DNA of 52,932 nt from a virus. The notes under the pieces are model-generated. The model ran no database searches. It worked only from the letters and a program-made list of their open reading frames with translations, and had not been told where the DNA came from. Of the stretch, positions 9,758 to 38,203 are shown piece after piece; position 1 is the first letter of the stretch; each line of letters starts with the position of its first letter. The stretch is from positions 1-52,932 of IMG/VR virus record IMGVR_UViG_3300045988_134091; one strand, given 5' to 3'. The position numbers and the translations under genes are program-made.

Positions 9758-10108
9758 ATGCGGGAAGGGCTTATCAAGTTTCTGATAAAGGTTCTTGATG
9801 AGAACAGAGATAAGCTGGTCTGGGAACACCTCTGTTATGCCCCCAAGGGCTTGTATTTGAAGTTTATTGACACCATGGGGATAGAGCGGTTTGAGATGGC
9901 TGATTTTGTGTCCAAATGGGCCAAGGAGGACTTCAATATTGACCTCCCCATGACAACCGCCAAGGACATTACCATTCTCCGGGAGCTTGTTCTGGACAAG
10001 TACAGTAGCGCATACCCCCATCTGCTGAGGAAGTCTGCTACAGATCACCAAGGCTGGGTCAGGGTTTGGGTATCAACACATATGGAAAGGGATTTACAAA
10101 GACAATGA
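9758..10108 (+). CDS. Hypothetical protein
   Basis: ORF track; ATGA overlap with the next gene. Confidence 0.5.
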   Translation: MREGLIKFLIKVLDENRDKLVWEHLCYAPKGLYLKFIDTMGIERFEMADFVSKWAKEDFNIDLPMTTAKDITILRELVLDKYSSAYPHLLRKSATDHQGWVRVWVSTHMERDLQRQ

Positions 10109-10497
10109 TTGAATCTACACAGTACAATGAGAAAGAGCTGTTCCCGCCCATCCTTGCGGTGGACTTTGATGGAACGCTGGTTGAAAACAAGTTCCCTGAG
10201 ATCGGGGAAGTCAACCCCGTGATTTGGGAAGCGGTATCTGCTTACAAAGCTGCGGGTTGGAAAATCATCTTGTGGAGCTGCCGAACAGAGACTATGCTTC
10301 AGGATGCGGTGGACTTCTGCGCATATCGGGGCTTGACCTTTGATGCTGTGAATGAAAACCTTCCTGAAGTTCAGGCATATTATGGCGGTGATACCAGGAA
10401 AGTGTTTGCCAATATGTACATCGATGACCGCTCCGCCGCCCTCTTTGTACAGCCGGATGTATCAGAGTTTGCCCCGGTCAATCTGGTATGGGGGTGA
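10105..10497 (+). CDS. HAD-superfamily hydrolase (putative nucleotidase/phosphatase)
   Basis: AVDFDGTL (DxDxT motif I); WSCRT (motif II-like); IDDR near the C-terminus. Confidence 0.6.
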   Translation: MIESTQYNEKELFPPILAVDFDGTLVENKFPEIGEVNPVIWEAVSAYKAAGWKIILWSCRTETMLQDAVDFCAYRGLTFDAVNENLPEVQAYYGGDTRKVFANMYIDDRSAALFVQPDVSEFAPVNLVWG

Positions 10498-10502
10498 GCA
10501 GG

Positions 10503-10826
10503 ATGTCTGTAAAACGGTTGTGTGATTGCTGTGGCACGGAAATTGCCGAGGATGATTTCATGGTGCTCAATCTTCTTCCCAAATGGAAAACCCGTGGGTT
10601 CAGCTTTGATATACCCTTTGCTACTCCAATGCCCAATCAGGAGTTGTGTGATAGTTGCGCTGCAGAAGTATATGAGCATTATCAGCTGATGAAAGCCAAT
10701 AAGCAGGGCAAAACCCTGAAGCGGGTGTGTCTCAATTGTGGTCAAGAGAATGACTACGATATTGTTTGTCCGATTTGCGGATTCTCCGCATTCAAATTGA
10801 CAGAGGGGGATACAAGTGGGGCTTGA
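10503..10826 (+). CDS. Zinc-ribbon protein (three CxxC pairs)
   Basis: CDCCGTE, CDSCAAE, CLNCGQ...CPICG. Confidence 0.5.
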   Translation: MSVKRLCDCCGTEIAEDDFMVLNLLPKWKTRGFSFDIPFATPMPNQELCDSCAAEVYEHYQLMKANKQGKTLKRVCLNCGQENDYDIVCPICGFSAFKLTEGDTSGA

Positions 10827-11178
10827 ATCTACACTTCAAAGCCGTGTACTTGATTATCTCAATCAGCTGCCCGGTTGTAAAGCAGAAAATGTCTCAGGAA
10901 ATGCTTCACAATCGGGCAGACCTGATATCAATGGATGCTTCCGGGGGAGAATGTTCAAGCTGGAGTTGAAAACCCCTGACCACAGGTACAAGGCCAGTAA
11001 AAAGCAACAGCTTGAGTTGAGACGCTGGAAGAATACCGGGTGTGTTGTTGGGGTTATCTACAGTATGGCTATGATTTACAAATTGTTCTCTTTGGACTGG
11101 GAAGAATACCCTGGTTATGAAGAAAAGACTGAGGCCAATAATTGCTTGTCATGGTTTGACATTCCTGACTGGGGGTGA
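10816..11178 (+). CDS. VRR-NUC domain nuclease
   Basis: GRPDINGCFRGRMFKLELKTP (D...ExK); position next to an SNF2 helicase. Confidence 0.75.
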   Translation: MGLESTLQSRVLDYLNQLPGCKAENVSGNASQSGRPDINGCFRGRMFKLELKTPDHRYKASKKQQLELRRWKNTGCVVGVIYSMAMIYKLFSLDWEEYPGYEEKTEANNCLSWFDIPDWG

Positions 11179-11182
11179 GTTC

Positions 11183-12601
11183 GTGGTTGTACATGGGTTT
11201 ACAATGAAGACAAAGCCTTGGGAACATCAGCTCAAGGCTTTGGAGTATTTATACCCCAGAGATGCCGCTGCACTGTACACAAAACCAGGAAGTGGCAAAA
11301 CCAAAATCATGATTGATTTGATTGTCAATAGAGAGTTCAAGAGAGTGTTGGTTGTGGCTCCGAAAAAACCTTGTGATGTTTGGCCCCCTCAAATCAAACT
11401 CCATTCAAGTTTGGAGTATGGCAATATAATCCCGCTTCATAAGTTGAATTGGGAAGGAAAGAAAAAAGCCCTTCAGTCGGCTATGAAACAGCCAAAAGAC
11501 AAGCCCTTGATATTCGTATGTAACTATGAATCGGTTTGGAGAAAACCCCTGGACAAGATGCTATTCTACAAAAAGCTAGGGATTGACTGCGTTATTTGTG
11601 ATGAAAGCCATAGAATCAAATCGCCCAGTAGCAAATGCTCCAGATTCCTTGCCCGGTTAGGAAAGAGTGTGCCACACCGATACTTGCTCACGGGCACTCC
11701 GTTGGCAGAAAACCCCATGGATGTATATGCGCAGTATAGGTTTCTTGACCCGGCGATATTTGGTACCAACTACTATGCATTTTGCGAGGAATACCAGAAT
11801 GTAGATACAGCACTCAGCTCCAGAGTTGGATTTCCTGTTTTGAACAAGAAGGAACCATACAAAAACCTGGATAGACTAAGGGAGAAAATGTTCAGTTGTG
11901 CTTTCTACATGAAGTCAACTGTAAAACTTCCCAAAACAACCCGCATGGTTATCAAAGTTCCTATGGACCAAAAGACTGAGGAAGTGTACAGGGAGCTGGC
12001 AAAAGAGGGTGCTGTGGAGCTGGGTGAGGGCTTTATGACAGTGAACAATGTCTTGGCTATGACCATCCGTAAACAACAAGTCACAAGCGGATATCTCCCT
12101 ATTGAGTATGACGATGGTACAAAAGAGCTGAAAAGAATCAGCACATACAGACGAACATTTCTGTACAACTTTGTGAAAAATCTCCCTGATGAGGAGCCAC
12201 TGGTCATATTTGCCAAGTTCAGAAAAGACTTGTATGCCATCCGAAAAGTGGCTGAGAAACTGGGATGCGGATATTCTGAGGTGTCCGGTTCAGAAGATAC
12301 CTTGAAGGATTGGAAGGAAGGCAAAACCCGGATATTGGGTGTTCAGTACACCTCTGGCTCTGAAAGTATAGACTTGACCCGTGCCCACATATGTATCTTT
12401 TACACACTGGACCACTCTTTGGGGAAGTATGACCAAGCCAGGAAACGGGTACACCGTCCCGGTCAGGAGAATCCTTGTTTGTACTACCATTTTGTAGCAA
12501 CCATGTCCACAGGAAAGACTGTTGACCAAGATATACTACAATGCTGGAAGAACAAAGAAGACTATGTCAAAGCTGTAATGAATGGGGCTGAGGCCCACTG
12601 A
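11183..12601 (+). CDS. SNF2-family helicase (start uncertain: GTG 11183 or ATG 11204)
   Basis: GSGKTK Walker A, DESHRIK (DExH), QARKRVHRPGQ (motif VI). Confidence 0.9.
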   Translation: MVVHGFTMKTKPWEHQLKALEYLYPRDAAALYTKPGSGKTKIMIDLIVNREFKRVLVVAPKKPCDVWPPQIKLHSSLEYGNIIPLHKLNWEGKKKALQSAMKQPKDKPLIFVCNYESVWRKPLDKMLFYKKLGIDCVICDESHRIKSPSSKCSRFLARLGKSVPHRYLLTGTPLAENPMDVYAQYRFLDPAIFGTNYYAFCEEYQNVDTALSSRVGFPVLNKKEPYKNLDRLREKMFSCAFYMKSTVKLPKTTRMVIKVPMDQKTEEVYRELAKEGAVELGEGFMTVNNVLAMTIRKQQVTSGYLPIEYDDGTKELKRISTYRRTFLYNFVKNLPDEEPLVIFAKFRKDLYAIRKVAEKLGCGYSEVSGSEDTLKDWKEGKTRILGVQYTSGSESIDLTRAHICIFYTLDHSLGKYDQARKRVHRPGQENPCLYYHFVATMSTGKTVDQDILQCWKNKEDYVKAVMNGAEAH

Positions 12602-12631
12602 AAAATTTTTCAGAAAACTTTGAAAAATCTC

Positions 12632-12677
12632 TTGACTTTTGTTTGAGAGCGGAGTATAATCATGATTGTAAGGAAGG
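12632..12677 (+). promoter_or_regulatory. Class A promoter A1 plus conserved leader box
   Basis: TTGACT 12632-37, 17-nt spacer, TATAAT 12655-60, then CATGATTGTAAGGAAGG. Confidence 0.75.
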
Positions 12678-12710
12678 TAAAACCACAAACAAACTGAGGA
12701 GGAATACAAA

Positions 12711-12899
12711 ATGAAGACCATCTCTGAAATTCGCAGCACTATGAAGCTCCATCACACCGCAAGCCGTAGAGGTTATGAAAGCCGCAAAACTGAGGGTCAT
12801 GTTGAAGAGTACAAAGGCAGATTTGGAACTGGTTATATCATTGTAACCCCCAGATTTGATACAACCCAGTATGTTAACATTGAGTACTACATTGTATAA
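12711..12899 (+). CDS. Small early protein (62 aa), monocistronic unit between promoter A1 and a terminator
   Basis: gaggagg RBS; consensus promoter 12632-12660 upstream; hairpin plus T-run immediately downstream. Confidence 0.65.
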   Translation: MKTISEIRSTMKLHHTASRRGYESRKTEGHVEEYKGRFGTGYIIVTPRFDTTQYVNIEYYIV

Positions 12900-15340: not shown

Positions 15341-15550
15341 TCAGTCCTCCTTTTCTTGTAGTTTGTTCAAGAGAAAGTTCAATTTCTCATCTTGTTCTTT
15401 GAGGTGATTGTGTATGTCCAACACAGCCTCATTTACGGTTTCTTGTAGTTGACTTTGACCCACATTCTCAGAATAGTTGGCCAACCCAACAAGAAAAGAC
15501 ACAATTGCTATTGCATCCAGAATTGAGAATTGTTCCCCTTGGTTGCTCAT
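15341..15550 (-). CDS. Small single-TM protein
   Basis: ATGA overlap with the upstream gene at 15547-15550; FSILDAIAIVSFLVGLANY hydrophobic segment. Confidence 0.5.
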   Translation of the reverse strand: MSNQGEQFSILDAIAIVSFLVGLANYSENVGQSQLQETVNEAVLDIHNHLKEQDEKLNFLLNKLQEKED

Positions 15551-15969
15551 GCCAGTTTCACAGCTCCCACACAAGTGTGATTCACCGTACCTGCAACACC
15601 ACTGATGTCCAGTGTGATGAGAGGATGGTTCACGCAGCAGGTAGTCAAGCACAGGTCAGTTTCGATGTGGCTTGTGTACACATCCCCAGCCGCTACGGTT
15701 TGCTGAGCAATAGCGCAGGGAAGGGCAACCCCATCTTTGTACAGCTGAAGGATGGCTACGCCCGCAGCGGTTGGAGTATAGGTGACATCAGCGGAAAGAT
15801 GATACAGACCAGACTTGTTAACCCGGATGCTTGCCGTGTTCAGGGTCAGAGAGCATCCGCTGTTTACAACAGGAGTTCCTTCCAGATTCAGAGGGGTCAG
15901 AGCAGCCGTGAAAGCCTGAGCGGTGTTGTTGTATACCCGGATACAAGATTTTGCATACTGATTATTCAT
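15547..15969 (-). CDS. C1q/TNF-like (BclA C-terminal-domain-like) jelly-roll protein
   Basis: About 140 aa of beta-rich sequence; ...SGLYHLSADVTYTPTAAGVAILQLYKDGVALP... pattern as in BclA-type C-terminal domains. Recognition by eye only. Confidence 0.35.
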   Translation of the reverse strand: MNNQYAKSCIRVYNNTAQAFTAALTPLNLEGTPVVNSGCSLTLNTASIRVNKSGLYHLSADVTYTPTAAGVAILQLYKDGVALPCAIAQQTVAAGDVYTSHIETDLCLTTCCVNHPLITLDISGVAGTVNHTCVGAVKLA

Positions 15970-16056
15970 ACAAAAGCTCCTTTCATAGATAAAGGGGGAG
16001 AGCAGCGTGCCCTCCCCCCTTCAAGTTGGGCATAAGTATATGCCAGTGTTCAGATG

Positions 16057-16749
16057 TTAGCAGCCGCAGCCGTTGCCGCAACCACAAACCCCATAGCCAT
16101 TCGCTGCAGTATAGGGGCTGCAGGTGACATAGCTAGGAATGGGGAAGGGACGCACCGCATTGATGATGGTCTGCGTCTGAGAGAAGTTGCCCAACTGGAG
16201 CTGAGCCGCCTGCAGGTTGTCACGCAGCTCCTGGATAGTGTTCTGAGTCATCAGAGCACGAGTGGCATCGCCGTCAGCCTTGATGGCATTGACAATGTCG
16301 CAGGTGTTGCGTGCGTTCTCATAGCGTACCGCATCAATGTTTCGGTTGGTTTCGCAGCAGCACTGCTGAGCAGCAAAACGGCTCTCAGCGATGTTGCTGT
16401 TCACGCCGTTGAAGCCCTGGCACAGCTGGTTCTGAATTCCATTCATGCCCTGCAGCATGGTAGTGTTCTGAGCATAAAAGCCATCACACAGACCATTCTG
16501 GATGCCGCGCACAGCATGATCCAGCTGGCTGTAGTTCAGGCCGTCATACAGCTCAGCACGAGTCAGAGCACCCTGAGCCGCTGCGTTGTTGCCAAAGCCA
16601 AAGCCACCGCCACCCCAGGCAAGCAGGAAGAACAGGAAGAACACCCAGATCCAGGTACTACTGCCACCTCCAAACATGCCATCGTTGTCTTTGTTCTGAA
16701 GAGCCAGAGCATCAGCAACAGACAGACCGCTACCAGATTCCATACCCAT
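16057..16749 (-). CDS. Membrane-anchored Cys-rich protein (C-terminal CGCGNGCGC)
   Basis: aaggagg RBS; TM segment WIWVFFLFFLLAW; repeated QNxLCxGF units; QQCCCE. Confidence 0.6.
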   Translation of the reverse strand: MGMESGSGLSVADALALQNKDNDGMFGGGSSTWIWVFFLFFLLAWGGGGFGFGNNAAAQGALTRAELYDGLNYSQLDHAVRGIQNGLCDGFYAQNTTMLQGMNGIQNQLCQGFNGVNSNIAESRFAAQQCCCETNRNIDAVRYENARNTCDIVNAIKADGDATRALMTQNTIQELRDNLQAAQLQLGNFSQTQTIINAVRPFPIPSYVTCSPYTAANGYGVCGCGNGCGC

Positions 16750-16773
16750 ACAATTGTCCTCCTTGTAATAGAT

Positions 16774-17019
16774 TTATTTCACCCCAGGAAACTGGGATTG
16801 AAACTGAGCCCAAGCATCATCAAAGCTGATGCCACGCTGTTTACAGAGGTTTTCACAAGTCTGCTTTAGTTCCTCTGGGGATTTCCCCTGAGCCATCTGT
16901 TGAGCCTGTCGAAACATTGGATTGGCATTTAGCTGACTCATCATGAGGTTCATAGGATTCAGACCTTTGCCCCCATTCATAAGCATGCCCATCATCTGCA
17001 TTGGATTGAAACCCATCAC
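16774..17019 (-). CDS. Met/Asn/Gln-rich small protein
   Basis: ORF track; MMGFNPMQMMGMLMNGG...; ATGA overlap with the upstream gene. Confidence 0.55.
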   Translation of the reverse strand: MMGFNPMQMMGMLMNGGKGLNPMNLMMSQLNANPMFRQAQQMAQGKSPEELKQTCENLCKQRGISFDDAWAQFQSQFPGVK

Positions 17020-17522
17020 TTGTTTCCTCCTTTGCCGTTATGCACGGGCAACCTCTGCTCTAGCCCGTTGAATCTCTGGTGGATTTCTATAAGTTTCTGG
17101 TTCAGGTCATCCTTCTTCACATACTCACTCATATCCTGACCACTGACCCCAGCAGAAGTGGGATTCTGACCATTTCCAGGTTGTCCCCCGGATTCTAGGG
17201 AGTATTTCAGGAAGATAATGTTGCCATCCAGCCCCAGCTGCTTTGTATAGATTTTTCCATGAGCCTTGTCCGGGAATACGAACAATGACCCATCAAAATC
17301 AATCATAGCAGCATTTGCTTCTTCCTCATTGGAAACAGGCCGCCCTTTGAGAATAGGAGCAGCGGGAGCTGCTTGCTGAGGATTGGGTGTATAATTCCCA
17401 GGCTGCGGATAACCCATAGCAGGGTTGGCAGCAAACTGTGGATACTGGGATTCCATTATTTGGAGCCTTTGCTGAGCAGTCTGCATAGCCGGGTTGGGGT
17501 AGTAGGTCGGTTGACCATACAT
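17016..17522 (-). CDS. Hypothetical protein with Pro/Gln-rich N-terminus
   Basis: caggagg RBS directly after a 16-bp inverted repeat. Confidence 0.6.
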   Translation of the reverse strand: MYGQPTYYPNPAMQTAQQRLQIMESQYPQFAANPAMGYPQPGNYTPNPQQAAPAAPILKGRPVSNEEEANAAMIDFDGSLFVFPDKAHGKIYTKQLGLDGNIIFLKYSLESGGQPGNGQNPTSAGVSGQDMSEYVKKDDLNQKLIEIHQRFNGLEQRLPVHNGKGGNK

Positions 17523-17538
17523 GATGCTTTACCTCCTG

Positions 17539-17578
17539 TAATTGAATTGTAAGGCCCATCCCCCTTACAATTCAATTA
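17539..17578. repeat. Perfect 16-bp inverted repeat with 8-nt spacer in the leader/promoter of gene 17522
   Basis: taattgaattgtaagg (17539-54) and ccttacaattcaatta (17563-78). Confidence 0.9.
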
Positions 17579-17603
17579 TACTATACTAGCAAATGGCAGA
17601 AGT
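17575..17603 (-). promoter_or_regulatory. Candidate promoter with good -10 and poor -35, overlapping a 16-bp inverted repeat
   Basis: - strand TATAAT (17580-75) followed by TGAATTGTAAGGGGG, which resembles the class A leader box; the -35 reads ACTTCT. Confidence 0.35.
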
Positions 17604-17640
17604 ATACAGAAAGGATCTCGAAAGTATCCCTAAAAGGTAA

Positions 17641-17674
17641 AGAAAACCCCCGCACCACAGTAGCAGTGCGGGGG
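17641..17674 (-). terminator. Rho-independent terminator after the sigma-like gene
   Basis: 9-bp GC stem cccccgcac/gtgcggggg; the - strand RNA is followed by UUUUCU. Confidence 0.8.
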
Positions 17675-17679
17675 TTTCC

Positions 17680-17910
17680 TCAAAAGAGTTTATTCAGTTT
17701 GGAAAGTGCTTTTGCGTGTCGTTTCTTGATTGTGACTTCCGCATAACCCAAGGTGTCTCCAATGTATCGGAAATCTTTTCCCTTGAGGTAGTGCAAACGC
17801 AAGATTTCCTTGTCTTCATCAGTCAATGTTGACCGTTCTAACAAGTCATCAAACCGGGATACATCAGGGATGTCCTTGAGCTTTCTTCTGGTGTCAAGAT
17901 GAACGCTCAA
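17680..17910 (-). CDS. Sigma-70 region-4-like HTH regulator (candidate late activator)
   Basis: LTDEDKEILRLHYLKGKDFRYIGDTLGYAEVTIKKRHAKALSKL; TTG start; followed by a terminator. Confidence 0.55.
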   Translation of the reverse strand: MSVHLDTRRKLKDIPDVSRFDDLLERSTLTDEDKEILRLHYLKGKDFRYIGDTLGYAEVTIKKRHAKALSKLNKLF

Positions 17911-17995: not shown

Positions 17996-18430
17996 TTACC
18001 CGATGGGTTGGAGTGAGTCACTGTTGATCCCTTGCTCTTGCTGCTGGATGTTCGTGTCCTGGTTACTGTTCTTGTGGTTGTCACTGTTTGTTTCGCCATT
18101 TGGTGTTACCTCCTCAAAGTTCCCTTGGATGTAGTCGGCATTTTCTCCAGCTTGATACACATTGTTACCTGAGCCCTCTCCTGTATCTTGAGTGACTGTA
18201 GTTGCGGTTGTACTATTGTATTCCCACCCACTCTCATACCAGGTGAAAATTCCTGCAATAGCGATGTTGACCAGGAGGCTGATGATGAGGATAATCCTCA
18301 ACCAAAAGTCTTCCCGCCTTTTGGATTCAAGCATGGTTATAACAATTCGGTTGAGTGCCACGCTCTGGTCCAGTGCATCCTCCTCTTTGTGAAGGGCATC
18401 CAGTTCCTGGATTGGAGTATCTGGTTTCAT
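17996..18430 (-). CDS. Coiled-coil plus single-TM protein (XhlA-like architecture; lysis-associated?)
   Basis: WLRIILIISLLVNIAIAGIF TM after an N-terminal helical segment; lies downstream of the tail fibre gene. Confidence 0.35.
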   Translation of the reverse strand: MKPDTPIQELDALHKEEDALDQSVALNRIVITMLESKRREDFWLRIILIISLLVNIAIAGIFTWYESGWEYNSTTATTVTQDTGEGSGNNVYQAGENADYIQGNFEEVTPNGETNSDNHKNSNQDTNIQQQEQGINSDSLQPIG

Positions 18431-18432
18431 TG

Positions 18433-18750
18433 TTATGCACCTCTGTCCTTTATGTGGTTTAGGGTTTCCATGATAGTAATTAGAGCTTGTGTATTGGCAT
18501 CAGATGCATGCATCATATTGAACAAAGTTTTGATTTGTTCCTCATGAGAGTTGACAAGGAGCGCAAGAGATTGTTGGCTTGACGTCAAGCCCTTCACATC
18601 TGATTTCAACTCCTCAATGCCCTCGATTGCTTGGTTGATTTTCTGGACTACAACGCCATCACCCTTGGCTCGTCCATTCATACCAACGACAAATGTGAGA
18701 ATACCTATCAAACAAGCCACAATACTACATACAAACAGTATGTAGTCCAT
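18433..18750 (-). CDS. N-terminal TM plus coiled-coil protein (holin-like candidate)
   Basis: aaggaggg lies upstream of ATG 18750; ILFVCSIVACLIGILTFVVG TM; consensus promoter upstream. Confidence 0.4.
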   Translation of the reverse strand: MDYILFVCSIVACLIGILTFVVGMNGRAKGDGVVVQKINQAIEGIEELKSDVKGLTSSQQSLALLVNSHEEQIKTLFNMMHASDANTQALITIMETLNHIKDRGA

Positions 18751-18776
18751 TAGTTGAGACCCTCCTTTCACTTTCT

Positions 18777-30354: not shown

Positions 30355-30512
30355 AGGTTTACTCCTTCTTTTTCAGCTTTTGCATAATCGGCAAGGAACT
30401 CATAAAATGCTTTTTTCACTTGTTCGGGAGCAGTGTCTTTCACTTTCCAGTCACCAAAGTCGAACTCTATGTACTCTTCTGTTAGGAAAGGCAAATCTTT
30501 TGAAGATAGCAT
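30351..30512 (-). CDS. Small acidic protein (53 aa), coupled on both sides; candidate immunity/antidote to the MuF C-terminal domain
   Basis: Hand translation MLSSKDLPFLTEEYIEFDFGDWKVKDTAPEQVKKAFYEFLADYAKAEKEGVNL; TGATG overlap with the MuF stop and ATGA overlap with the next gene. Confidence 0.45.
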   Translation of the reverse strand: MLSSKDLPFLTEEYIEFDFGDWKVKDTAPEQVKKAFYEFLADYAKAEKEGVNL

Positions 30513-32146
30513 CACTCTACACCTCCAAGAAGGATTTCAATTTGTTTTCCAAGTGACACTGCTGCTTTACTTGGATTTTCACTTGTTATGTACTCCGAAA
30601 ACAGCTCTGCAAAGCACTCTCTCTCATTCTTTGATGCATAGGTGCTGATTTTCAGTTTCACCTGGTTCTCTTTGATTCCCCCTGCTTTCAGAGCTTTCTT
30701 TACAACATCAGAAGATATTGTATCTTTCCCTAGGCTTCTTCCAATGTACCCATCCAAGGCATGACCAAACTCGTGAGCAATTATTCCTGTGGCATTTGTA
30801 CCCTCCGGGTGAAGCCCTATGAATATATCATACTTGTAAGATTTTTTGACCTTGTCCCAATCAGAAAAATATGCTTTGCTCAGGCTTATACCACCATCTG
30901 TAGTTGTCCTGCAGTTTGCATACACTCCTTTTCTCAGCTCCTTCACTTCTGGAGCAGGGAATTTTCCTACCAGTGATGGGTATCTTTTAAACAGGGTATC
31001 ATACATTTCTCCTACTGCTCTTGCGCTTTCTACATCGCAACCTCTCATGTAGGTTTTCGTCTTGAACCATTTTGATTCATTGAATACCTTGTCTATGTCT
31101 TTTATTGAAGAAGCCTCCTGAAGTCGTTTCTGTGTAGGCTTAGAGGGGGCCTGTTTGCTAGTGCTTTCTCTTATACGTTTATGTGTTGGTGCTGAAGTCC
31201 CTTTCAAGTCAGCAGCCCAAGTATCAAGAGCCTCGTCAGGTGCACCCTGAGCCCAGTCAGCAATCCTGTCTGCTGTGTCAGTCATACTGTTTTCAATGAC
31301 AGCGATGAATGTACACATACCGTTGGGATGGTCCAGCGGGAGATCTGTTTTGGAGTATTCAACTCCATCACGCTCTGCACAAATCTCGCATGTGCGTGCG
31401 CCTCCTGCGGATACCCATTTGTATTTTGTGACAAAGGGGTTTTTCTGTGTGGTTCTCACAAAGCTCTGTTGATAAGCATGTGAAACCATTGTGCGGGCAA
31501 GTCTTTGAGCACTATAGTCAACTTTTCTGGCCGTTCCCGGATAGACTTTAGACCAGCCCCAATCCTTCCTGGCTGAAGGGTCAACATACTTCTCCAAATC
31601 CTTGGCAATGTCGTAGGCACTTTTGTTCTGAGCAATACCCTGGGCAACCACATTCTGGACATCTCTCTGTGTCCTCTTGGTGTTTTTCCATAGTGCCCTG
31701 CTCAGGCTCCATTTACCCTCATAGAGCTGTCCTGTAGCCACAGCACGCACAACCTCATCGGGAACATGGGAGAAAGCACCCTGTACAGGCATACCAACTT
31801 CTTTCAAGAAGTCAATATTGTCTCCTACAACAGCCTCAGCTGTTTTCTTCATGTTGCCCTTAACAGTGGATTCAATCTCACCTCGGATTTTGTCCAGCTC
31901 CTTGTTGAGCTGATTCTGAAGCTGACTGAGATACTGTTTTCTGAGTGCATCTGATGGCACCCTGGGGGCTTTCTCAGCTTGCTTGGCTACTTCCTTGGCT
32001 GCATTCTCATACAGCCTCTGAATCTGCTTCTGTTGGGCAGCTGTAAGCCGTACACGCTCTTGTTCCGCAGCTCTGAGGTTCAGTTTTCCGGTGCTCCGGG
32101 TCATGTGTTGTTTTACAGTCTTGCTTGAAAAGTCGGCTGTAGACAA
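30512..32146 (-). CDS. MuF / SPP1 gp7-like minor head protein with C-terminal HExxH zincin-like domain
   Basis: GGARTCEICAERDGV (Mu F motif) in the first two thirds; C-terminal GIIAHEFGHALD...NERECFAELFSEY. Confidence 0.8.
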   Translation of the reverse strand: MSTADFSSKTVKQHMTRSTGKLNLRAAEQERVRLTAAQQKQIQRLYENAAKEVAKQAEKAPRVPSDALRKQYLSQLQNQLNKELDKIRGEIESTVKGNMKKTAEAVVGDNIDFLKEVGMPVQGAFSHVPDEVVRAVATGQLYEGKWSLSRALWKNTKRTQRDVQNVVAQGIAQNKSAYDIAKDLEKYVDPSARKDWGWSKVYPGTARKVDYSAQRLARTMVSHAYQQSFVRTTQKNPFVTKYKWVSAGGARTCEICAERDGVEYSKTDLPLDHPNGMCTFIAVIENSMTDTADRIADWAQGAPDEALDTWAADLKGTSAPTHKRIRESTSKQAPSKPTQKRLQEASSIKDIDKVFNESKWFKTKTYMRGCDVESARAVGEMYDTLFKRYPSLVGKFPAPEVKELRKGVYANCRTTTDGGISLSKAYFSDWDKVKKSYKYDIFIGLHPEGTNATGIIAHEFGHALDGYIGRSLGKDTISSDVVKKALKAGGIKENQVKLKISTYASKNERECFAELFSEYITSENPSKAAVSLGKQIEILLGGVE

Positions 32147-32170
32147 AACAGGTCACCTCTCCTCCCAGGA

Positions 32171-33121
32171 TTAAGTTGCGTGGCCCCCAAGCATTCTGTG
32201 CACGATCACCAGCGTCCGCATCATATCCATGGACAGAGCGAGATTGCCATCCCCAGTACCTCTAAGTGTACCATCATTGACGAATGCCTGCAAGCTATCA
32301 AGCGCCCAATCGGGCACATCAGTCACCTTGCCATCAACGATACGGCCATAGGTTTTGTGATTCGCATCCGCCATGCGCTTCATCACATAAAACATTCGCA
32401 CCATATCGGTGGACAGATCAAGATTGCCGCCACCCGTCCCGGCGATAAGACCTTCATTCATCATTTCTTTGATCGTGCCACGTGCCCAGCCGGGCACATC
32501 GTCAATGCTGTTGTATCTCATAACATCTTCCTCCTCATCGTTATCGTTGTTGATGCAGTGCATCGCATTGTAGACATCGCGTCGGAACATATCCATCGTC
32601 AGGCCAAAAGCGCTCCAGAGATGTGCGGGATCGGCGTGGGGACTAGCAACGCCACGCATACGTCCTTCTGCATGACTGATAATCACGCCGTCAGCCAAGG
32701 GGTCAAGGCCAAACTGGTCACAAAGCTGTGCAAAAAGCGGCACGGCTGCGGCGTAAGTACCTTTTACATGCGTTTCGGTTGCTGTAGGATCAAGATCGCG
32801 CCACTCAGCGCCATGACCAGTGTAGACGATAGATGCAGGCTCGGTCATCTCGATACCGATGTGCGTGCTGTTGGCGCTCCCGCCACAATGCCACGCTTGA
32901 ACAGTCCATGGCAGTGTCTGGTATACTGTGCCATCCCGCTGCACAAAAGCATGGACGCAAACAGATTGGCCATTTGGCCTGTACTGATTGTAACTTTGTG
33001 CCATGACGGATGCATTAGGTTGAGGGCACCCAATGCTATGTAGCATAATGCCGCGTGGTTTAAGTGGCGTACCAATCTGGTAGCACCTATTTCTGGTTGT
33101 AAATGCCTTGATGATCTTCAT
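32171..33121 (-). CDS. Endolysin: N-acetylmuramoyl-L-alanine amidase (Amidase_2/PGRP) with two C-terminal SLH-like repeats
   Basis: IMLHSIGCPQ, WHCGGSANSTHIGIEMTEP, HAEG; repeats DVPGWARGTIKEMMNEGLIAGTGGGNLDLS and DVPDWALDSLQAFVNDGTLRGTGDGNLALS. Confidence 0.85.
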   Translation of the reverse strand: MKIIKAFTTRNRCYQIGTPLKPRGIMLHSIGCPQPNASVMAQSYNQYRPNGQSVCVHAFVQRDGTVYQTLPWTVQAWHCGGSANSTHIGIEMTEPASIVYTGHGAEWRDLDPTATETHVKGTYAAAVPLFAQLCDQFGLDPLADGVIISHAEGRMRGVASPHADPAHLWSAFGLTMDMFRRDVYNAMHCINNDNDEEEDVMRYNSIDDVPGWARGTIKEMMNEGLIAGTGGGNLDLSTDMVRMFYVMKRMADANHKTYGRIVDGKVTDVPDWALDSLQAFVNDGTLRGTGDGNLALSMDMMRTLVIVHRMLGGHAT

Positions 33122-33194
33122 TCCGTTGCCCCCTTGTTTTCCCTTCTCCTGGATGATTTCAAGCCCATTCTTCATCAGTCATTTAAGCGCCTCC

Positions 33195-35117
33195 TCATGG
33201 GATCGGTTCGTTGATGGTAGCGATAACTGCCGACGCATCAGTGCAGATCAGACTTACGCGGATGTAATGCTCTGCGGATGCTGTGACCGTGACGATGTCT
33301 CCGCTGCTGGTAAAATGAAGACTATTCCATGCATACCCGTTGTATAGGTAGCCCGCGCTTATAAACATTGCTGTTGCGCTATATGCCACCGCTATGCTGT
33401 GCCCATCGTTCGCTGCAGGAAGGCTCACACCCTTGATACGAAGTGTATCGCCAGCTTTCAGGTGGATCAAGCTTGTAGCGTTCATATTTGCGCCAATCGT
33501 CGCCCAGCCCGCTTGCGCTTTGTTCGTACCGCTCCCTGCGCTCAACCTTGTGTCTGCAGAGATTCCGACTGTATCAAGGATGTTTGTAACGGTCGCAGCG
33601 CATGTAATTACAATATTGCCCGTTACCTTGGCAATAGTGATCGTGTTCCCGGACACCGCCGACGCGGAAATATCTGTTCCACCCATTGTGACAGTGATCG
33701 CACCGAGCTTCTTGTATGTTCCCGTCGGAGAGAGCATCGTTGTGTAAGCTGCACCCTCGGCAATGGTATTCGCCGTGTTAGACGATGCGCAGTTGATCAG
33801 ATTGCGTGTGATACTGTAATGTACAGTCGGCGCAGAGGCCGCCGCAGTAATCGTTATTGCCCCCGTTACATTGGCGATGTTGATTGCGCCGCTTCCGGCC
33901 GAATAAGCAGTGGCCGTTATATCAACGCCGCCCATTTTGATCACTACCGACGTGATCGTCTTCCCGTTATCCGCCGAGAGTACTGCAGTATAAGCATCCC
34001 CATAGTCTACCTGCGCTGCGCCATTGCTAATACTGCATCCTGTGAGATTTTTTGTAATTGATTGATACCAGTGCAACACTTCGGGCGTCCCATTGATCAT
34101 AGCCGCGCGGTAAGCGTTGATGTAGGCCATCGACATTCCGCACGTTCCCACGGCAAAATGCACGCATTTGTCACGGAACGTGTCTCCGGAAACGGCGTTG
34201 ATCGCATTGATAAGCCCCTTCCACTCTGGCTCATTACGGCGGCGGGCAAGTGCGTCTGTCCCGGAGCCGGAATAAAAGGTAGTCAACTCGTAGTCTTTGT
34301 CGATGTCGGACTGGCTCATGCCGAGCAGCCCCTCCAGCACGCAGGCCAGCGTGCCTGTACGGTCCGCACCTGCGGTGCAGTGAAAATATACCGGCTCACG
34401 ATGCGTCACTGCGTCGATAACGCATCGAAGATAGAGCTGCCACGTTGCAACCGGCGTCAGCGCGTAGGACGCCGCCTTGTCAGCAATTGTAAACCGTACA
34501 TCGTTACCAAGCGGGGATTCCGTTGCAACGTCACCGTCGGACGGATCGCGTCCCTCTTTGCCTCTGAGGTCGATTTCATGCTGCACACCGAACTGGCCAA
34601 CCAGCACCGCCCGGTCTGCTGCAGAGATACGCCCGCCGCGAATCAGCAGTCCATATTTCACCGTGCCGCCGTCACAAGCCCAGCCACCAAGGTCGCGTAC
34701 ATTCCACGCCTCGGCGGAGTTGTCCCGCGTGCGAATCCATCTTAATGCGTCCAGCGGTTTGAGCGTCCCAGCTTTCCCGCCAGAGGCAAATGGCGTGAGC
34801 ACATTTGGCACTTCGTTGTAGTACGTAACGCCGCCAACCGTCTGCCCGATGGGCTTGTAATTGCTCACTATCGCTGTTGCGGGGGCATAATTTGCAATTT
34901 GAGATGTGCTGTAATCGCCGGGGTCATAGGTCACGTTGGCCAGATAATGACGCACCGCCTCTGGGCACTGATGCCACTCGAATGCTTCACTCCCAGAAAG
35001 CGCCCGCACAGCATCTGCCATATCAGCAACTTTGTACTTCAGCGTGGACCCGTTTTTTTCGCGGATAGCATCTGCGATGTCCTGTATGGAAGCTTCTTCG
35101 TAAAGCTTCTTTGCCAT
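33195..35117 (-). CDS. Structural (fibre-like) protein containing a CX5R protein-tyrosine-phosphatase-like domain
   Basis: VYFHCTAGADRTGTLACV (HCxxGxxRT P-loop); N-terminal IADAIREKNGS...MADAVRAL fibre-type motif; two Ig-like repeats (MGGVDITATAYS / MGGTDISASAVS). Confidence 0.7.
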   Translation of the reverse strand: MAKKLYEEASIQDIADAIREKNGSTLKYKVADMADAVRALSGSEAFEWHQCPEAVRHYLANVTYDPGDYSTSQIANYAPATAIVSNYKPIGQTVGGVTYYNEVPNVLTPFASGGKAGTLKPLDALRWIRTRDNSAEAWNVRDLGGWACDGGTVKYGLLIRGGRISAADRAVLVGQFGVQHEIDLRGKEGRDPSDGDVATESPLGNDVRFTIADKAASYALTPVATWQLYLRCVIDAVTHREPVYFHCTAGADRTGTLACVLEGLLGMSQSDIDKDYELTTFYSGSGTDALARRRNEPEWKGLINAINAVSGDTFRDKCVHFAVGTCGMSMAYINAYRAAMINGTPEVLHWYQSITKNLTGCSISNGAAQVDYGDAYTAVLSADNGKTITSVVIKMGGVDITATAYSAGSGAINIANVTGAITITAAASAPTVHYSITRNLINCASSNTANTIAEGAAYTTMLSPTGTYKKLGAITVTMGGTDISASAVSGNTITIAKVTGNIVITCAATVTNILDTVGISADTRLSAGSGTNKAQAGWATIGANMNATSLIHLKAGDTLRIKGVSLPAANDGHSIAVAYSATAMFISAGYLYNGYAWNSLHFTSSGDIVTVTASAEHYIRVSLICTDASAVIATINEPIP

Positions 35118-35278
35118 CAGTAGCTCACCTCATCCCCATTGAGAATTGTGCCAGTAATGCGCTCACCAGCTGCGTTGTGGGCGGTTGTCCCGAATACCAT
35201 CTTATCCGGTGTTACGCTGTCACTGGAAACGTCCAATAGGATCGTTCCATTTGAAAGTTGTACTTTGTTGTTTGCCAT
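35117..35278 (-). CDS. Small ORF (53 aa), paralog of the N-terminus of 35314-35904
   Basis: gaggag RBS; MANNKVQLSNGTILLDVSSDSVTPDKMVFGTTAHNAAGERITGTI compared with MADKYNSKVVLASGEVLMDLTGDDITAADLAKGKKAHDKTGAPIVGT; ATGA overlap with the next gene. Confidence 0.45.
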   Translation of the reverse strand: MANNKVQLSNGTILLDVSSDSVTPDKMVFGTTAHNAAGERITGTILNGDEVSY

Positions 35279-35313
35279 TGCGCATCTCCTCTTTTCGGGG
35301 GCAGACCCATCCG

Positions 35314-35904
35314 TTATCCGATCGTGACCGTTTGACCACCCTGCGGATTGTCGGCATACTTAACCGGAATAGCGCCCACAGTCACCTGAGACAGATAGTT
35401 ATATGTGGGGCTGTCGGGGGCAATGACCTGCTGCTTGAACGATGGAGTTACAGTCTTGGCCTGTGCCTTTGCACCCTCGGTGCCGGACATGGTTCCCTCA
35501 ACACCCAGAATCGAAATGCCCTGACGGATGTTGTTAGGGAGAATCTTTGCCGCCTCGGTTGGGTCAATCTGTGCAGCGCCACTGCCATCATGATAGCCAT
35601 GAGGAATGGGGATAGAAACGCCCTTTTTGGCAACATTCAAAGTCTTTGCGCCGTTGTTGGGCATGGTACCAGTAACCTTGGCCCCGGTCACATACGCTGT
35701 TTTACCGAGCAGAATTTCTGCTGCTCCCGCATTGGCATCACTGGTATCAGCATCCTTTGTGCTTGTACCCACAATCGGAGCACCAGTTTTGTCATGAGCT
35801 TTCTTGCCTTTCGCAAGGTCAGCAGCGGTAATGTCATCCCCGGTCAAATCCATCAGGACTTCTCCAGATGCCAGGACCACTTTGCTGTTGTACTTGTCAG
35901 CCAT
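35314..35904 (-). CDS. Fibre-associated structural protein
   Basis: ILLGKTAYVTGAKVTGTMPNNGA motif; C-terminal NPQGGQTVTIG shared with 35897-36148. Confidence 0.5.
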   Translation of the reverse strand: MADKYNSKVVLASGEVLMDLTGDDITAADLAKGKKAHDKTGAPIVGTSTKDADTSDANAGAAEILLGKTAYVTGAKVTGTMPNNGAKTLNVAKKGVSIPIPHGYHDGSGAAQIDPTEAAKILPNNIRQGISILGVEGTMSGTEGAKAQAKTVTPSFKQQVIAPDSPTYNYLSQVTVGAIPVKYADNPQGGQTVTIG

Positions 35905-36148
35905 TTATTGTACCTCCAATGTATACTGTTGTGCCTCCGCTGGGGTTGCTTACGCGTGTCACTTCTATGGGGTTGACAATAACGTCTTCATTCATGGTTT
36001 TACCCTTTGTTTCAAGAGTTTTGCCACTAAAGTCCGGGTTAACCGTATAATCTCCTGTATAGAGGTCTCCACCAACACTCACTGTAACGGCAGGTTCCAC
36101 AATAAGTATATACTCTTCCGGGCAGATATGACCAATCCAGTTACTCAT
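35897..36148 (-). CDS. Small structural protein (shares the NPxGGxTVxIG C-terminal motif)
   Basis: VSNPSGGTTVYIGG; overlapping start and stop. Confidence 0.45.
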   Translation of the reverse strand: MSNWIGHICPEEYILIVEPAVTVSVGGDLYTGDYTVNPDFSGKTLETKGKTMNEDVIVNPIEVTRVSNPSGGTTVYIGGTING

Positions 36149-36452
36149 AACCAGTCTCCCTCAACAGCTCTTCTACACACAGAGGCGCAGCTAAAGATGC
36201 TTTTTTATTGCCATACTCATCTGTCCAGCAAAGTTGGCCTTTAGTCGGAGATGTGGTTAGCTTCATTGCATCTTTATATGGTATGGTGACTAAAAGCTTC
36301 CCATTCACATACTGCGCCGGAAACTCCATATATGCACCATACTGTTGTTTCACACAGAACAGGAAGTTTCTTGCATTGGAAAAGTCAACCAGCTCGCCGT
36401 TCCTGCCTTTTCGCACCGACAAAACCAGTTTTGATTCAATTCTCTGGAGCAT
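36141..36452 (-). CDS. Hypothetical protein
   Basis: ORF track; overlaps the portal stop. Confidence 0.5.
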   Translation of the reverse strand: MLQRIESKLVLSVRKGRNGELVDFSNARNFLFCVKQQYGAYMEFPAQYVNGKLLVTIPYKDAMKLTTSPTKGQLCWTDEYGNKKASLAAPLCVEELLRETGYE

Positions 36453-37986
36453 TGTTATTCACATCCTCCTCGGCCTGACCATTGATGCTCTCTCCTCCCT
36501 CACTCTCATTCAGATCCATAAAAGAATCTTCAAGGATTTGGCGCTCAAGAGCAATCTGTCTCAGCTCCTCCTCGGCCTCATCATCGGTCAGATTGCGCCA
36601 CTTCTTCATGTAGGATTTGCGGCTCATAGTCTGCGCGGTGACCTCAGCCAAGTCGGTCTGCTTCTCCTCTTGCTCATCCTCAGGCAGAGAATATTGATTG
36701 TCCACTCGGATTGTATATCCAATATCAGGCAGGGCCTCGTCAATGTAAAACTGCCCAGCCTTGGGGTACAGCCGTACACCCTCAATGATACATCTACCAA
36801 GGAACTGAAGTGCGGGCCTCCAGGCAAGCATCTTCTCGTCGCAGCGGACAATCAAATCCCAGTAAATGGCCTTCAGGGTCTTTCCAGAGGACACAACACC
36901 TTTCAGAGCTTCAGGAGATACATTGGGAACAGCGCACTGCTCATACATTGTGTTCTTGATTCTGTCAAGTGTGGTTCCCAGTGGGGTGGAATAACTCATA
37001 GGAGAATCCAACACACCCACCTGAGCAGAGCGGTCAACAGCCTGATTCTGGTCTGAAGACAAATCCCAAAAAGCACCTGCGGAAATAGACAATCCCTTGG
37101 TGGACTCAGGAGAGGCATCCACAGTATAGCGGATCGGATTCATACCTTTGCGCTCTGCATCCATATCGGCTGCGGCCAAACGGCTGTACCAGCTTTCATA
37201 ATCCTCCAGCTGAGAGATTTCAGACACTCCAATCAGGTCACCCGTCAGGCCATCGTTTACAATGACCCAAGCAGGGATGAAGGAAAACCGGGTCTGTGTA
37301 TCAGGCTGGATTTCCTCAACCAGCTGGCCCATACCGTTGTACACATTCTCAGAGTAGTAGCACAGGCCATTCTGCATCCAATACTTCTTCTTGTAAATGC
37401 GTTGGTCAACCTTGGCTTTCTCGTCATTCAACCCATAAAATGCCACAATCTTGGTCAGAATGTTGGCGTTGTTAGGATCAACATCGTACACAAACTCAAG
37501 GCTGGGAAGGAAGCTGACCTGAATGCCGCTGTCCTCGTTGATGTTGAACATGAGGGCCACTCTTTTGCTGATGAAGCAATCCTTGGCAGCTTTGAGCAGA
37601 GCATTTTTGAAGCCGTTTTCCTCCAGAACATTGTCAATCAAAGTCTGGTAAATGGTTCCCGCATCTTTGGCTGCTTCCCGCTCCGCTTTGTTCCCACCCA
37701 GGTCTACATCCACATAAAAGTCGGGGGATTTGGAGAACAAAAAGCGCACTTCTTTGTCCAGCAGAGAGCGGGTCGTCTTGTATCTCAGGTCTGCAGGCGT
37801 GTAGTCCAGCTGGCCCTCCTGAACATAGGGAGCACCGTGCTCATACACATTATACAGCCGGATAACTTCATACATATCCTCCAGGACATTTGTGCCATAC
37901 AAGCCCTCCAACTCAGCCTTGATAATGCTGGTAGGAATGTTCAAAAGCCTTGTTACATCAACCGTTGCTTGTAATTTGTCAGCCAT
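36436..37986 (-). CDS. Portal protein (SPP1 gp6-like)
   Basis: ggggtgag RBS upstream of ATG 37986; size, position and acidic C-terminus. Confidence 0.85.
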   Translation of the reverse strand: MADKLQATVDVTRLLNIPTSIIKAELEGLYGTNVLEDMYEVIRLYNVYEHGAPYVQEGQLDYTPADLRYKTTRSLLDKEVRFLFSKSPDFYVDVDLGGNKAEREAAKDAGTIYQTLIDNVLEENGFKNALLKAAKDCFISKRVALMFNINEDSGIQVSFLPSLEFVYDVDPNNANILTKIVAFYGLNDEKAKVDQRIYKKKYWMQNGLCYYSENVYNGMGQLVEEIQPDTQTRFSFIPAWVIVNDGLTGDLIGVSEISQLEDYESWYSRLAAADMDAERKGMNPIRYTVDASPESTKGLSISAGAFWDLSSDQNQAVDRSAQVGVLDSPMSYSTPLGTTLDRIKNTMYEQCAVPNVSPEALKGVVSSGKTLKAIYWDLIVRCDEKMLAWRPALQFLGRCIIEGVRLYPKAGQFYIDEALPDIGYTIRVDNQYSLPEDEQEEKQTDLAEVTAQTMSRKSYMKKWRNLTDDEAEEELRQIALERQILEDSFMDLNESEGGESINGQAEEDVNNNAPEN

Positions 37987-37999
37987 GTTCTCACCCCTT

Positions 38000-38203
38000 T
38001 CAAAATCGTTTTCTGTTGCATTTTTCACTTATCAAGTTGCGTTTCCAAATTTGTTCTGACTCATATGCGTCTGCAGGATGTACTTTGCGTTCTTCAGCCT
38101 TTACCCGCTCAAGCTCTGCCTTGAAAGTCTTGTATGCTGTACAACTCCCATGGCAGAGCTCAGAACGGGATTCACACCCCAAACAGGGGGCATGGGGCCT
38201 CAT
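38000..38203 (-). CDS. Small Cys-rich protein
   Basis: CLGCESRSELCHGSC. Confidence 0.45.
   Translation of the reverse strand: MRPHAPCLGCESRSELCHGSCTAYKTFKAELERVKAEERKVHPADAYESEQIWKRNLISEKCNRKRF

Follow-up and report, generated by a model that had tools for sequence, protein, structure and literature searches.

The locus analysed here raises the question of what a cysteine phosphatase might do in a phage protein built like a fibre. The window, by which we mean the whole stretch of 52,932 nucleotides of the IMG/VR virus record IMGVR_UViG_3300045988_134091 (positions 1 to 52,932), has in its list of open reading frames (ORFs) a minus-strand ORF at 33195..35117 that starts with ATG and codes for a 640-aa protein, called below the PTP protein after its protein tyrosine phosphatase (PTP) fold. 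A reading made earlier from the letters alone (the sequence-only reading) had assigned this protein to the virion module and divided it into a fibre-type N-terminus, a central domain with a phosphatase loop, two Ig-like repeats and a distinct C-terminal domain. Our analyses suggest that it may be an accessory fibre head of the virion, which would hydrolyse a phosphate ester carried by a host-envelope glycopolymer, a reading to which we give a probability of about one in two; its display on the particle in the role of such a head, the part for which gene context argues, appears rather probable. The gene is preceded by a GAGGTGA Shine-Dalgarno sequence, its ATG overlaps the stop codon of a small ORF, p53, and its parts are as follows.

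33195..35117, minus strand: gene for the 640-aa putative fibre-head protein with a Cys-phosphatase core (PF13350, E 2.3e-24; AlphaFold2 model with a mean predicted local distance difference test score, pLDDT, of 93.4)
34992..35117, minus strand: N-terminal adaptor module (N-module), residues 1-42, KKLYEE..IADAIREKNG..Y.V..M..AV (helices; sharing in BLASTP)
34713..34991, minus strand: family-specific extension of the phosphatase core, residues 43-135, WHQCPEAVR.YL.NVTYDP.DY... (conserved together with the PTP domain)
34074..34712, minus strand: PTP-fold catalytic domain of Y_phosphatase3 type with the NVRDLGG motif, residues 136-348 (Pfam, Foldseek)
34356..34382, minus strand: P-loop HCTAGADRT with H246, C247, R253 and T254 (translation)
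33828..34067, minus strand: Ig-like repeat 1, residues 351-430 (all-beta in the AlphaFold2 model; like repeat 2)
33588..33821, minus strand: Ig-like repeat 2, residues 433-510 (AlphaFold2 model; like repeat 1)
33198..33587, minus strand: C-terminal beta-sandwich, residues 511-640, a possible wall-binding module (separate AlphaFold2 model)

Pfam analysis of the PTP protein revealed a Y_phosphatase3 domain (PF13350) at residues 136-312, with 87.2 bits against a cut-off of 22.2 (E 2.3e-24). The sole CX5R match of the protein, C247-R253, lies inside YFHCTAGADRTGT, and translation of nucleotides 34356-34382 reads HCTAGADRT (residues 246-254). A profile of the PTP family matched the C. difficile PTP 8dhi with an E-value of 7e-17 and M. 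tuberculosis PtpB with 2e-6. The AlphaFold2 model was built on 71 diverse relatives, and Foldseek searches of the PDB with it indicated that the best matches were 8dhi/8dhj (E 7e-8) and PtpB (1ywf/2oz5; E 1e-6), all with a probability of 1.0 and a target template modelling (TM) score of 0.52-0.63, followed by TpbA, Siw14 and plant and fungal atypical dual-specificity phosphatases. Since the Pfam score, the match of the family profile to 8dhi and the match of the model all agree, the motif is not a chance occurrence, and a PTP-fold domain with an intact nucleophile loop is close to certain.

Alignment of 69 relatives revealed that H246, C247, D252 and R253 of the P-loop are each kept in 67 and G250 and T254 each in 68, and that N139, R141, D142, G144 and G145 of the NxRDLGG motif are invariant among the residues present. 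The strict P-loop pattern HCxxGxxR[ST] was found in about 132 of 150 representatives, and five further representatives retain CX5R with an H-to-Q/N or a T-to-A change. Tandem PTP loops also occur, three in P0141 and two in P0171 (proteins and loci of the comparison carry P and L numbers).

The modular architecture of the PTP protein is likewise close to certain. In the AlphaFold2 model, residues 1-42 form two helices (8-22 and 30-39). The Ig-like repeats span 351-430 and 433-510 and share 44% identity (E 6e-15). Between the helices and the PTP domain lies a subfamily-specific extension (residues 43-135), which is strongly conserved and part of the phosphatase core; it is conserved with the PTP domain in the 50%-identity representatives and in secreted bacterial homologues, and homology to extension plus core typically begins at residues ~40-47. 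The C-terminal domain (511-640), when modelled alone, gave a compact beta-sandwich with a pLDDT of 96.6 that had no significant match in the PDB by Foldseek (best E 0.03); the weak matches obtained were to carbohydrate-binding modules and a tailspike, and to call it a carbohydrate-binding module would be a guess. Pfam and PHROG scans of the N-terminal, Ig-like and C-terminal parts gave no usable family, the N-module matching phrog_29123 (function unknown) weakly; the extension has no Pfam family, and the whole 640-aa protein had no match in PHROGs. The domain layout given by the sequence-only reading was therefore essentially right, from the two-helix N-terminal segment through the PTP domain and the Ig-like repeats to the C-terminal beta domain, and its HCxxGxxR(S/T) loop proved to be intact and to lie within a genuine Y_phosphatase3 domain that structure prediction and fold search recover; in the central domain it had identified the PTP part correctly and missed the conserved 43-135 extension of the core.

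The link of the PTP protein to fibres comes from the gene boundary on its 5' side. Genes upstream of family members end in a heptapeptide of the form [DN]G[TDN][EG]VxY and overlap by their stop codon with the start of the PTP gene (junction TACTGATG), and the gene that follows opens with a module of ~42 aa. When this junction was used as a DNA pattern against IMG/VR, at least 119 loci were obtained (L036-L154), besides which it is also present at L004, L005, L009, L030 and L033. Among the matches listed, 42 of the 119 upstream ORFs carry collagen-like Gly-X-Y runs, the one upstream ORF that was tested contains BppU_N (E 4e-11) plus Collagen, and the N-module is common by BLASTP to 82 of the 91 complete downstream ORFs; these 82 comprise 23 PTP heads, 13 metallophosphoesterase-like heads and a remainder including BspA-type LRR_5 proteins and unknowns. 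Because the N-module stands before such differing heads in 82/91 ORFs, the N-terminus is an exchangeable module of fibre heads, serving attachment or recombination; the description "fibre-type" was thus right in substance, the module being shared by other heads behind BppU/collagen-type genes, though no library names it.

The ending of the upstream gene and the type of N-module also go together, DGTEVSY being paired with the KKLYEE module in 54 of 59 cases and DGNEVAY with NVLV in 20 of 20, among the matches listed. This tracking fits docking of one protein onto the other, and genetic linkage explains it equally well. The codons of the heptapeptide contain the ribosome-binding site, GAGGTG or GGGGTG, and its Ser is encoded by both AGC and TCG; nucleotide-level and protein-level constraint are inseparable in these data.

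In relatives, the head gene stands directly after a baseplate or fibre shaft gene and before lysis genes (L026, L034 and many of L036-L154). The order at L034 is tape measure protein-Dit-Tal-BppU_N-PTP (820 aa)-...-lysin-holin. P0041, which is 84% identical to the window protein, is found unchanged in several different phage backbones, and in a siphophage-type prophage it is encoded behind a Prophage_tail protein and a fibre protein with collagen, ahead of an amidase and a holin. In P0200, P0145 and P0174 the phosphatase is preceded by Phage_fiber_rpt or PHROG tail-fibre segments. The window differs from these loci in that its PTP gene is placed between portal and MuF, behind p196 and p53.

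That the head acts on a phosphate ester is suggested by a replacement of the core. Comparison of the 650-aa protein of L043 with the window protein showed 50% identity in the N-module (E 5e-13), 46% in the Ig repeat and 30% in the C-terminal domain, the last match reaching the final residue, and in place of the PTP its core is a Metallophos domain with the DxH, GD, GNHD and GHxH motifs all present. Metallophosphoesterase heads of 570-656 aa, which have the N-module, Ig-like repeat and C-terminal domain of the PTP protein, were found at L043, L047, L090, L097, L123, L134 and L146. Since two unrelated phosphoesterase folds occupy one scaffold, this arrangement points to catalysis on a phosphate ester. 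Several of the metallophosphoesterase heads are followed by an amidase related to that of the window.

Bacterial homologues of the core, which include the 43-135 extension, carry Sec signal peptides, lipoprotein signals, dockerin-like repeats or GDSL domains (loci L028/L029, a bacterial contig, and L012, L016, L020, L021 and L022). The dockerin-like homologues are from metagenome-assembled genomes (MAGs) of Ruminococcus and the lipoprotein homologues from MAGs of Coriobacteriia, and P0251, a protein of 1,748 aa with three GDSL/SGNH esterase domains, adjoins surface-polysaccharide genes. On the basis of these secretion signals, dockerins and GDSL domains in its cellular homologues, the PTP subfamily works outside the cytoplasm, and an extracellular, cell-surface target is favoured.

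Within the window, the minus-strand order is TerL, portal, p103, p83, p196, p53, PTP, Amidase_2 endolysin and MuF-type head protein, and then scaffold, capsid, tail tube, tape measure, Dit, a Gp37-like tail protein and a 412-aa fibre-like protein. The genes around the PTP gene overlap or abut, no convincing terminator was found between the genes of this region, and its features are given below.

36436-38028, minus strand: portal
36141..36452, minus strand: p103, first cassette gene, overlapping the end of the portal gene (co-occurrence with p83 and p196)
35897..36148, minus strand: p83, small cassette protein whose C-terminus resembles that of p196 (phrog_31538)
35314..35904, minus strand: p196, fibre-type cassette protein (phrog_13589, function unknown, E 8e-47)
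35117..35278, minus strand: p53, 53-aa ORF absent from the ORF list, candidate adaptor (translation; ends in NGDEVSY)
32171..33175, minus strand: Amidase_2 endolysin, immediately downstream of PTP (PF01510, E 4.5e-20; PHROG endolysin/amidase)
30512-32146, minus strand: MuF-type minor head protein

Comparison of the portal-MuF site in 34 IMG/VR relatives of the portal (L155-L188) indicated that the junction (window 32146-36452) is a variable cargo hotspot. In the closest relatives, whose portals are 88-97% identical, MuF follows ~100 nt after the portal and the cassette is absent. Others have p103-p83-p196 followed by an LRR_5 protein that bears the N-module, by a 742-aa protein resembling a propeller, or by short proteins, and further relatives have a holin plus endolysin, or a 563-aa fibre-like protein, at this site. 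The gene p103 is present with p83 and p196 at L155, L156, L162, L163 and L166, and at L169 tblastn gave a match to p103 at 60% but no ORF for it is listed. Since close portal relatives are without the whole cassette, the latter is dispensable for making particles.

The cassette genes themselves resemble fibre genes. The p196 protein shares 50% identity with a protein encoded where the tail module of the Oscillospiraceae phage NatCom_27610 ends; there a homologue of p83 precedes that of p196 just ahead of holin and endolysin. With the protein annotated as tail fibre in phage phiOH2, p196 shares 32% identity; at L077, homologues of p83 and p196 are found between BppU-like and collagen-like genes, upstream of a PTP head. 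Both p196 and p83 are, judging from these comparisons, fibre-type proteins. The 53-aa p53 (MANNKVQ...TGTILNGDEVSY) consists of an N-terminal motif, shared with p196 and other heads at the portal-MuF site, plus the junction heptapeptide NGDEVSY and nothing else; the ORF is also present in L061, L089 and L098, and it looks like a minimal adaptor between a p196-type platform and the PTP head. Comparison of p103, p83 and p53 with a home-made BppU_N-like hidden Markov model gave no clear match, and no BppU_N protein is recognisable in the window.

Some other features of the window were recorded. The MuF-type protein (30512-32146, minus strand) has a C-terminal extension with a HEFGH zincin motif and a sub-threshold match to ATLF, the anthrax lethal factor domain (E 6e-4), so that it may carry a metalloprotease cargo fused to MuF. 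Farther on, downstream of the tail module, an odd set of genes at 15547-17910 on the minus strand codes for a 140-aa protein that weakly matches BclA_C, a Gly/Cys-rich protein of 230 aa whose sequence ends in GCGNGCGC, small proteins rich in Q, P and M, and a sigma-70 region-4 protein of 76 aa.

The PTP gene is placed immediately upstream of an Amidase_2 gene in the window, L001 and L024-L027. Alignment of L024, a podophage-like contig, with L026, a siphophage prophage, revealed 95-99% DNA identity over the PTP + Amidase_2 block. This identity sets in at the codons of the heptapeptide, 25 nt before the PTP gene starts, and stops where the Amidase_2 gene ends. This block of ~2.8 kb (about 9976-12780) is present in L024, L025 and L026, whose backbones are otherwise unrelated; since identity of this degree is confined to the block, PTP and lysin can move as one unit, which fits a host-envelope specificity block made of the last fibre gene plus the lysin. 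The PTP gene does not adjoin a lysin gene in L030, L031, L033 and L034; the next gene is the portal in L030, further fibre-like genes follow in L031, and at L034 a 417-aa protein and two small genes follow. In searches of Pfam and PHROG, the PTP protein gave PTP-type Pfam matches alone, with no peptidoglycan hydrolase domain and no PHROG lysis family. The Amidase_2 protein, with two C-terminal repeats of ~45 aa, is the only recognisable endolysin in the window and is encoded ~14 kb from two membrane-segment proteins that follow the tail genes (18433-18771 and 17996-18430, minus strand). These two match no holin family, and a hydrophobic stretch is the sole basis for calling them holins.

The family is widespread. 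Among the best 120 of more than 4,000 matches, all were full-length relatives more than 80% identical, mostly metagenomic, and in a database clustered at 50% identity 8,818 matches were obtained, 424 of them with E <1e-30; the conserved unit is residues ~43-348, and the ends vary. Genome matches were to MAGs of Subdoligranulum, Oscillospiraceae, Ruminococcus and other Clostridia and to two of Coriobacteriia, and the P0041-type protein is present on NCBI genome contigs. Against deposited phages, tblastn gave two weak fragments only and megablast of the 14-kb region gave no match. The IMG/VR record UViG_3300045988_135080 is in essence the same phage as the window (PTP 99%, portal 98% and amidase 100% identical). 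Three uncultured gut phage proteins in BFVD are automatically annotated "tyrosine phosphatase family protein", which is the sole existing label for the family. In the searchable literature we found no paper on a PTP-fold head, the junction/N-module system or phosphoesterase swaps, and the literature on 8DHI, PF13350 in phages, phosphatase tail domains, metallophosphoesterase fibres and Heliusvirales held nothing on this PTP family.

These observations can be assembled into a mechanism in which the PTP protein would be the subunit that forms the distal head of a modular accessory fibre of the phage. Its N-module would dock it onto the preceding fibre component, in the window p53, whose NGDEVSY matches the heptapeptide that ends upstream fibre or shaft proteins elsewhere and which would in turn be seated on p103-p83-p196. 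Binding to a cell-wall glycopolymer of an Oscillospiraceae-type host would fall to the Ig-like and C-terminal domains, and Cys247 would attack a phosphate ester of the envelope polymer through a cysteinyl-phosphate intermediate. Cys-phosphatases normally act on monoesters or anhydrides, and diester cleavage is atypical of them. The substrate would most plausibly be a phosphomonoester or a phosphoanhydride; because the fold is known for these and not for diesters, phosphodiester-linked polymers are the less likely chemistry for the PTP head and may suit the Metallophos heads better. As a result, a receptor determinant would be removed or unmasked, or passage through a phosphate-rich wall layer eased, and the gene would travel with the endolysin as a host-envelope specificity block. 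A broader and more tentative proposal, which we would put somewhat short of even odds, is that a plug-and-socket fibre system exists in phages of gut Clostridia (Oscillospiraceae-type), with the C-terminal heptapeptide of a shaft or adaptor as socket, the 42-aa N-module on the head as plug, and interchangeable heads, two unrelated phosphoesterases (a Cys-phosphatase and a metallophosphoesterase) among them.

Several points weigh against the enzymatic fibre head. Its presence in the particle is argued from gene context, the cassette is dispensable given the close phage relatives without it, and the PTP gene of the window is outside the tail module, adjoining the endolysin. The correlation between heptapeptide and N-module may reflect linkage and the Shine-Dalgarno sequence instead of docking. 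Wall polymers are, to our knowledge, mostly phosphodiesters, and we know of no cleavage of these by Cys-phosphatases. No conserved general-acid Asp could be assigned in the PTP protein, the candidate D213 being D or E in 37 of 67 relatives and D183 being D in 44 and N in 16. CX5K replaces CX5R in six representatives (P0180, P0185, P0193, P0257, P0264 and P0265), a subclade whose loop is HCG(A/V)GADKTGT with Lys at the position of the loop Arg, and the C-terminal domain has no significant match by Foldseek in the PDB to a known carbohydrate-binding module. Transfer of the PtpB general acid onto the PTP protein was also tried and rejected, the segment being unalignable to PtpB or to the C. difficile enzyme.

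Three other explanations have to be set beside the enzymatic head. In the one suggested by the neighbouring amidase, the PTP protein would be a second lysis enzyme and not a virion protein; made late, it would reach the wall with the amidase through the holin lesion, bind it by the Ig/beta-sandwich part like the cell-wall-binding domain of an endolysin, and remove phosphate-linked wall components (a teichoic-type polymer or an S-layer anchor) to complete lysis. The main argument for it is the movement of the 2.8-kb PTP + amidase block as a unit between unrelated phages, to which can be added the gene order PTP-Amidase_2 in the loci given above, a protein without a signal peptide, as in holin-dependent endolysins, an enzyme-then-binding-domain layout like that of Gram-positive endolysins, and the holin plus endolysin that related phages have at the same portal-MuF site. 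We nevertheless consider it unlikely, for adjacency to a lysin is not universal (L030, L031, L034), the last tail gene normally adjoins lysis genes anyway, the N-module and upstream heptapeptide link PTP to BppU/collagen fibre genes, and some relatives are fused to tail-fibre repeats. A head of the fibre might alternatively be a receptor-binding one whose phosphatase fold is mainly a phosphate-recognising lectin with little or no turnover, so that the phage simply binds a phosphorylated wall polymer. The sharing of the slot with receptor-binding heads such as BspA-type LRR heads with the N-module, the altered loops in the family (CX5K in the six representatives above and the catalytic Cys lost in one, P0214) and the lack of a conserved general acid would agree with this; it is made quite improbable by the retention of Cys, Arg, His and the loop Asp in ~97% of the aligned relatives and in the window protein, and by the replacement of the core, in the same scaffold, by an apparently active and unrelated metallophosphoesterase, which argues for catalysis and not binding.

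The sequence-only reading had also offered dephosphorylation of host proteins after ejection. The PTP protein would then be an intracellular effector, either injected together with the phage DNA or expressed in the infected cell or by the prophage, with tyrosine-kinase-regulated capsule synthesis as an example of a target. Its closest solved relatives are named protein tyrosine phosphatases, its gene neighbours are the head genes portal and MuF, it has no signal peptide, and some phages use MuF-type proteins as ejected cargo carriers. This proposal found no support, however, and we regard it as very improbable: Ig-like repeats, a beta-sandwich tail and a fibre adaptor make no sense in a cytoplasmic enzyme, the gene belongs to a fibre-type cassette, and the cellular homologues of the subfamily are secreted, lipid-anchored or dockerin-bearing, so that their extracytoplasmic location counts against it. 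The other target it had named, phosphodiester-linked surface polymers, stands in part, an extracellular site being favoured by the secreted homologues and the Metallophos swap and the diester chemistry being less likely. Its placement of the protein in the virion module agrees with the relatives near BppU/collagen fibre genes and is weakened by the window, where the gene is outside the tail module in the portal-MuF cassette.

Enzymes on phage fibres, among them depolymerases, esterases and GDPD, determine host range and serve as tools. Virion-borne enzymes that modify the envelope are thus already known, and GDPD is the documented phosphoesterase example (PMC10194240). A PTP-fold phosphatase on a phage fibre has not been described in the searchable literature. 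The family is very common in gut metagenomes, and its hosts include abundant butyrate-producer lineages, the wall chemistry and phage receptors of which are largely unknown; that one scaffold holds either a PTP or a metallophosphoesterase speaks independently for a surface target that bears phosphate, and the conserved junction offers a natural handle for the engineering of fibre heads. If the plug-and-socket proposal were true, this would be the first PTP-fold receptor-modifying enzyme on a virion, and phosphate-ester-decorated wall polymers would be major phage receptors in these poorly characterised commensals.

Comparison with known systems places the catalytic domain nearest to PtpB (1ywf/2oz5) and the C. 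difficile PTP (8dhi/8dhj), with which the PTP protein shares the Pfam family, the fold and the NxRDxGG and HCxAGxDRTG motifs at ~18% identity in the structural alignment. It differs from both by its unique conserved N-terminal extension of 93 aa, by Ala in its P-loop (AGADRTG) in place of Lys (AGKDRTG), and by a phage fibre-type scaffold and the extracytoplasmic bacterial members of its subfamily. GDPD domains occur in tail proteins of staphylococcal and enterococcal phages, where they are thought to act on phosphate-containing wall polymers, and GDPD is the only phosphoesterase listed in that survey of tail lysins, with no phosphatase (PMC10194240). The likeness to these virion teichoic-acid phosphodiesterases is that of a phosphoesterase in the tail or fibre region of Gram-positive phages; GDPD is a metal-dependent TIM-barrel diesterase and the PTP protein a Cys-phosphatase, unrelated in fold and chemistry, and Pfam found no GDPD domain in the latter.

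The Dit-Tal-BppU_N protein-head order in PTP relatives is like that of the TP901-1/Tuc2009 baseplate, and as in lactococcal BppL/BppA the distal head is exchangeable and the N-terminal attachment segment conserved. Unlike in TP901-1/Tuc2009, the PTP head would be an enzyme and not a lectin-like receptor-binding protein, the shaft is often collagen-like, and the junction heptapeptide and N-module form a different sequence system. The glucan phosphatases laforin and SEX4/LSF2 combine a dual-specificity phosphatase fold with a carbohydrate-binding module and take phosphate monoesters off polysaccharide. They offer a functional analogy only, that of a Cys-phosphatase tethered to beta-sandwich binding modules; the PTP protein, unlike them, is without CBM20/48 and has no detectable sequence relation to them, and membership is not claimed. 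Mycobacteriophage LysB, an accessory lysis esterase that works beside the endolysin LysA, is the model for a lysis role, being likewise a non-peptidoglycan envelope enzyme encoded next to an endolysin. Its fold and substrate are different, and the PTP protein, unlike LysB, has a fibre adaptor, and some of its relatives are fusions with tail fibres.

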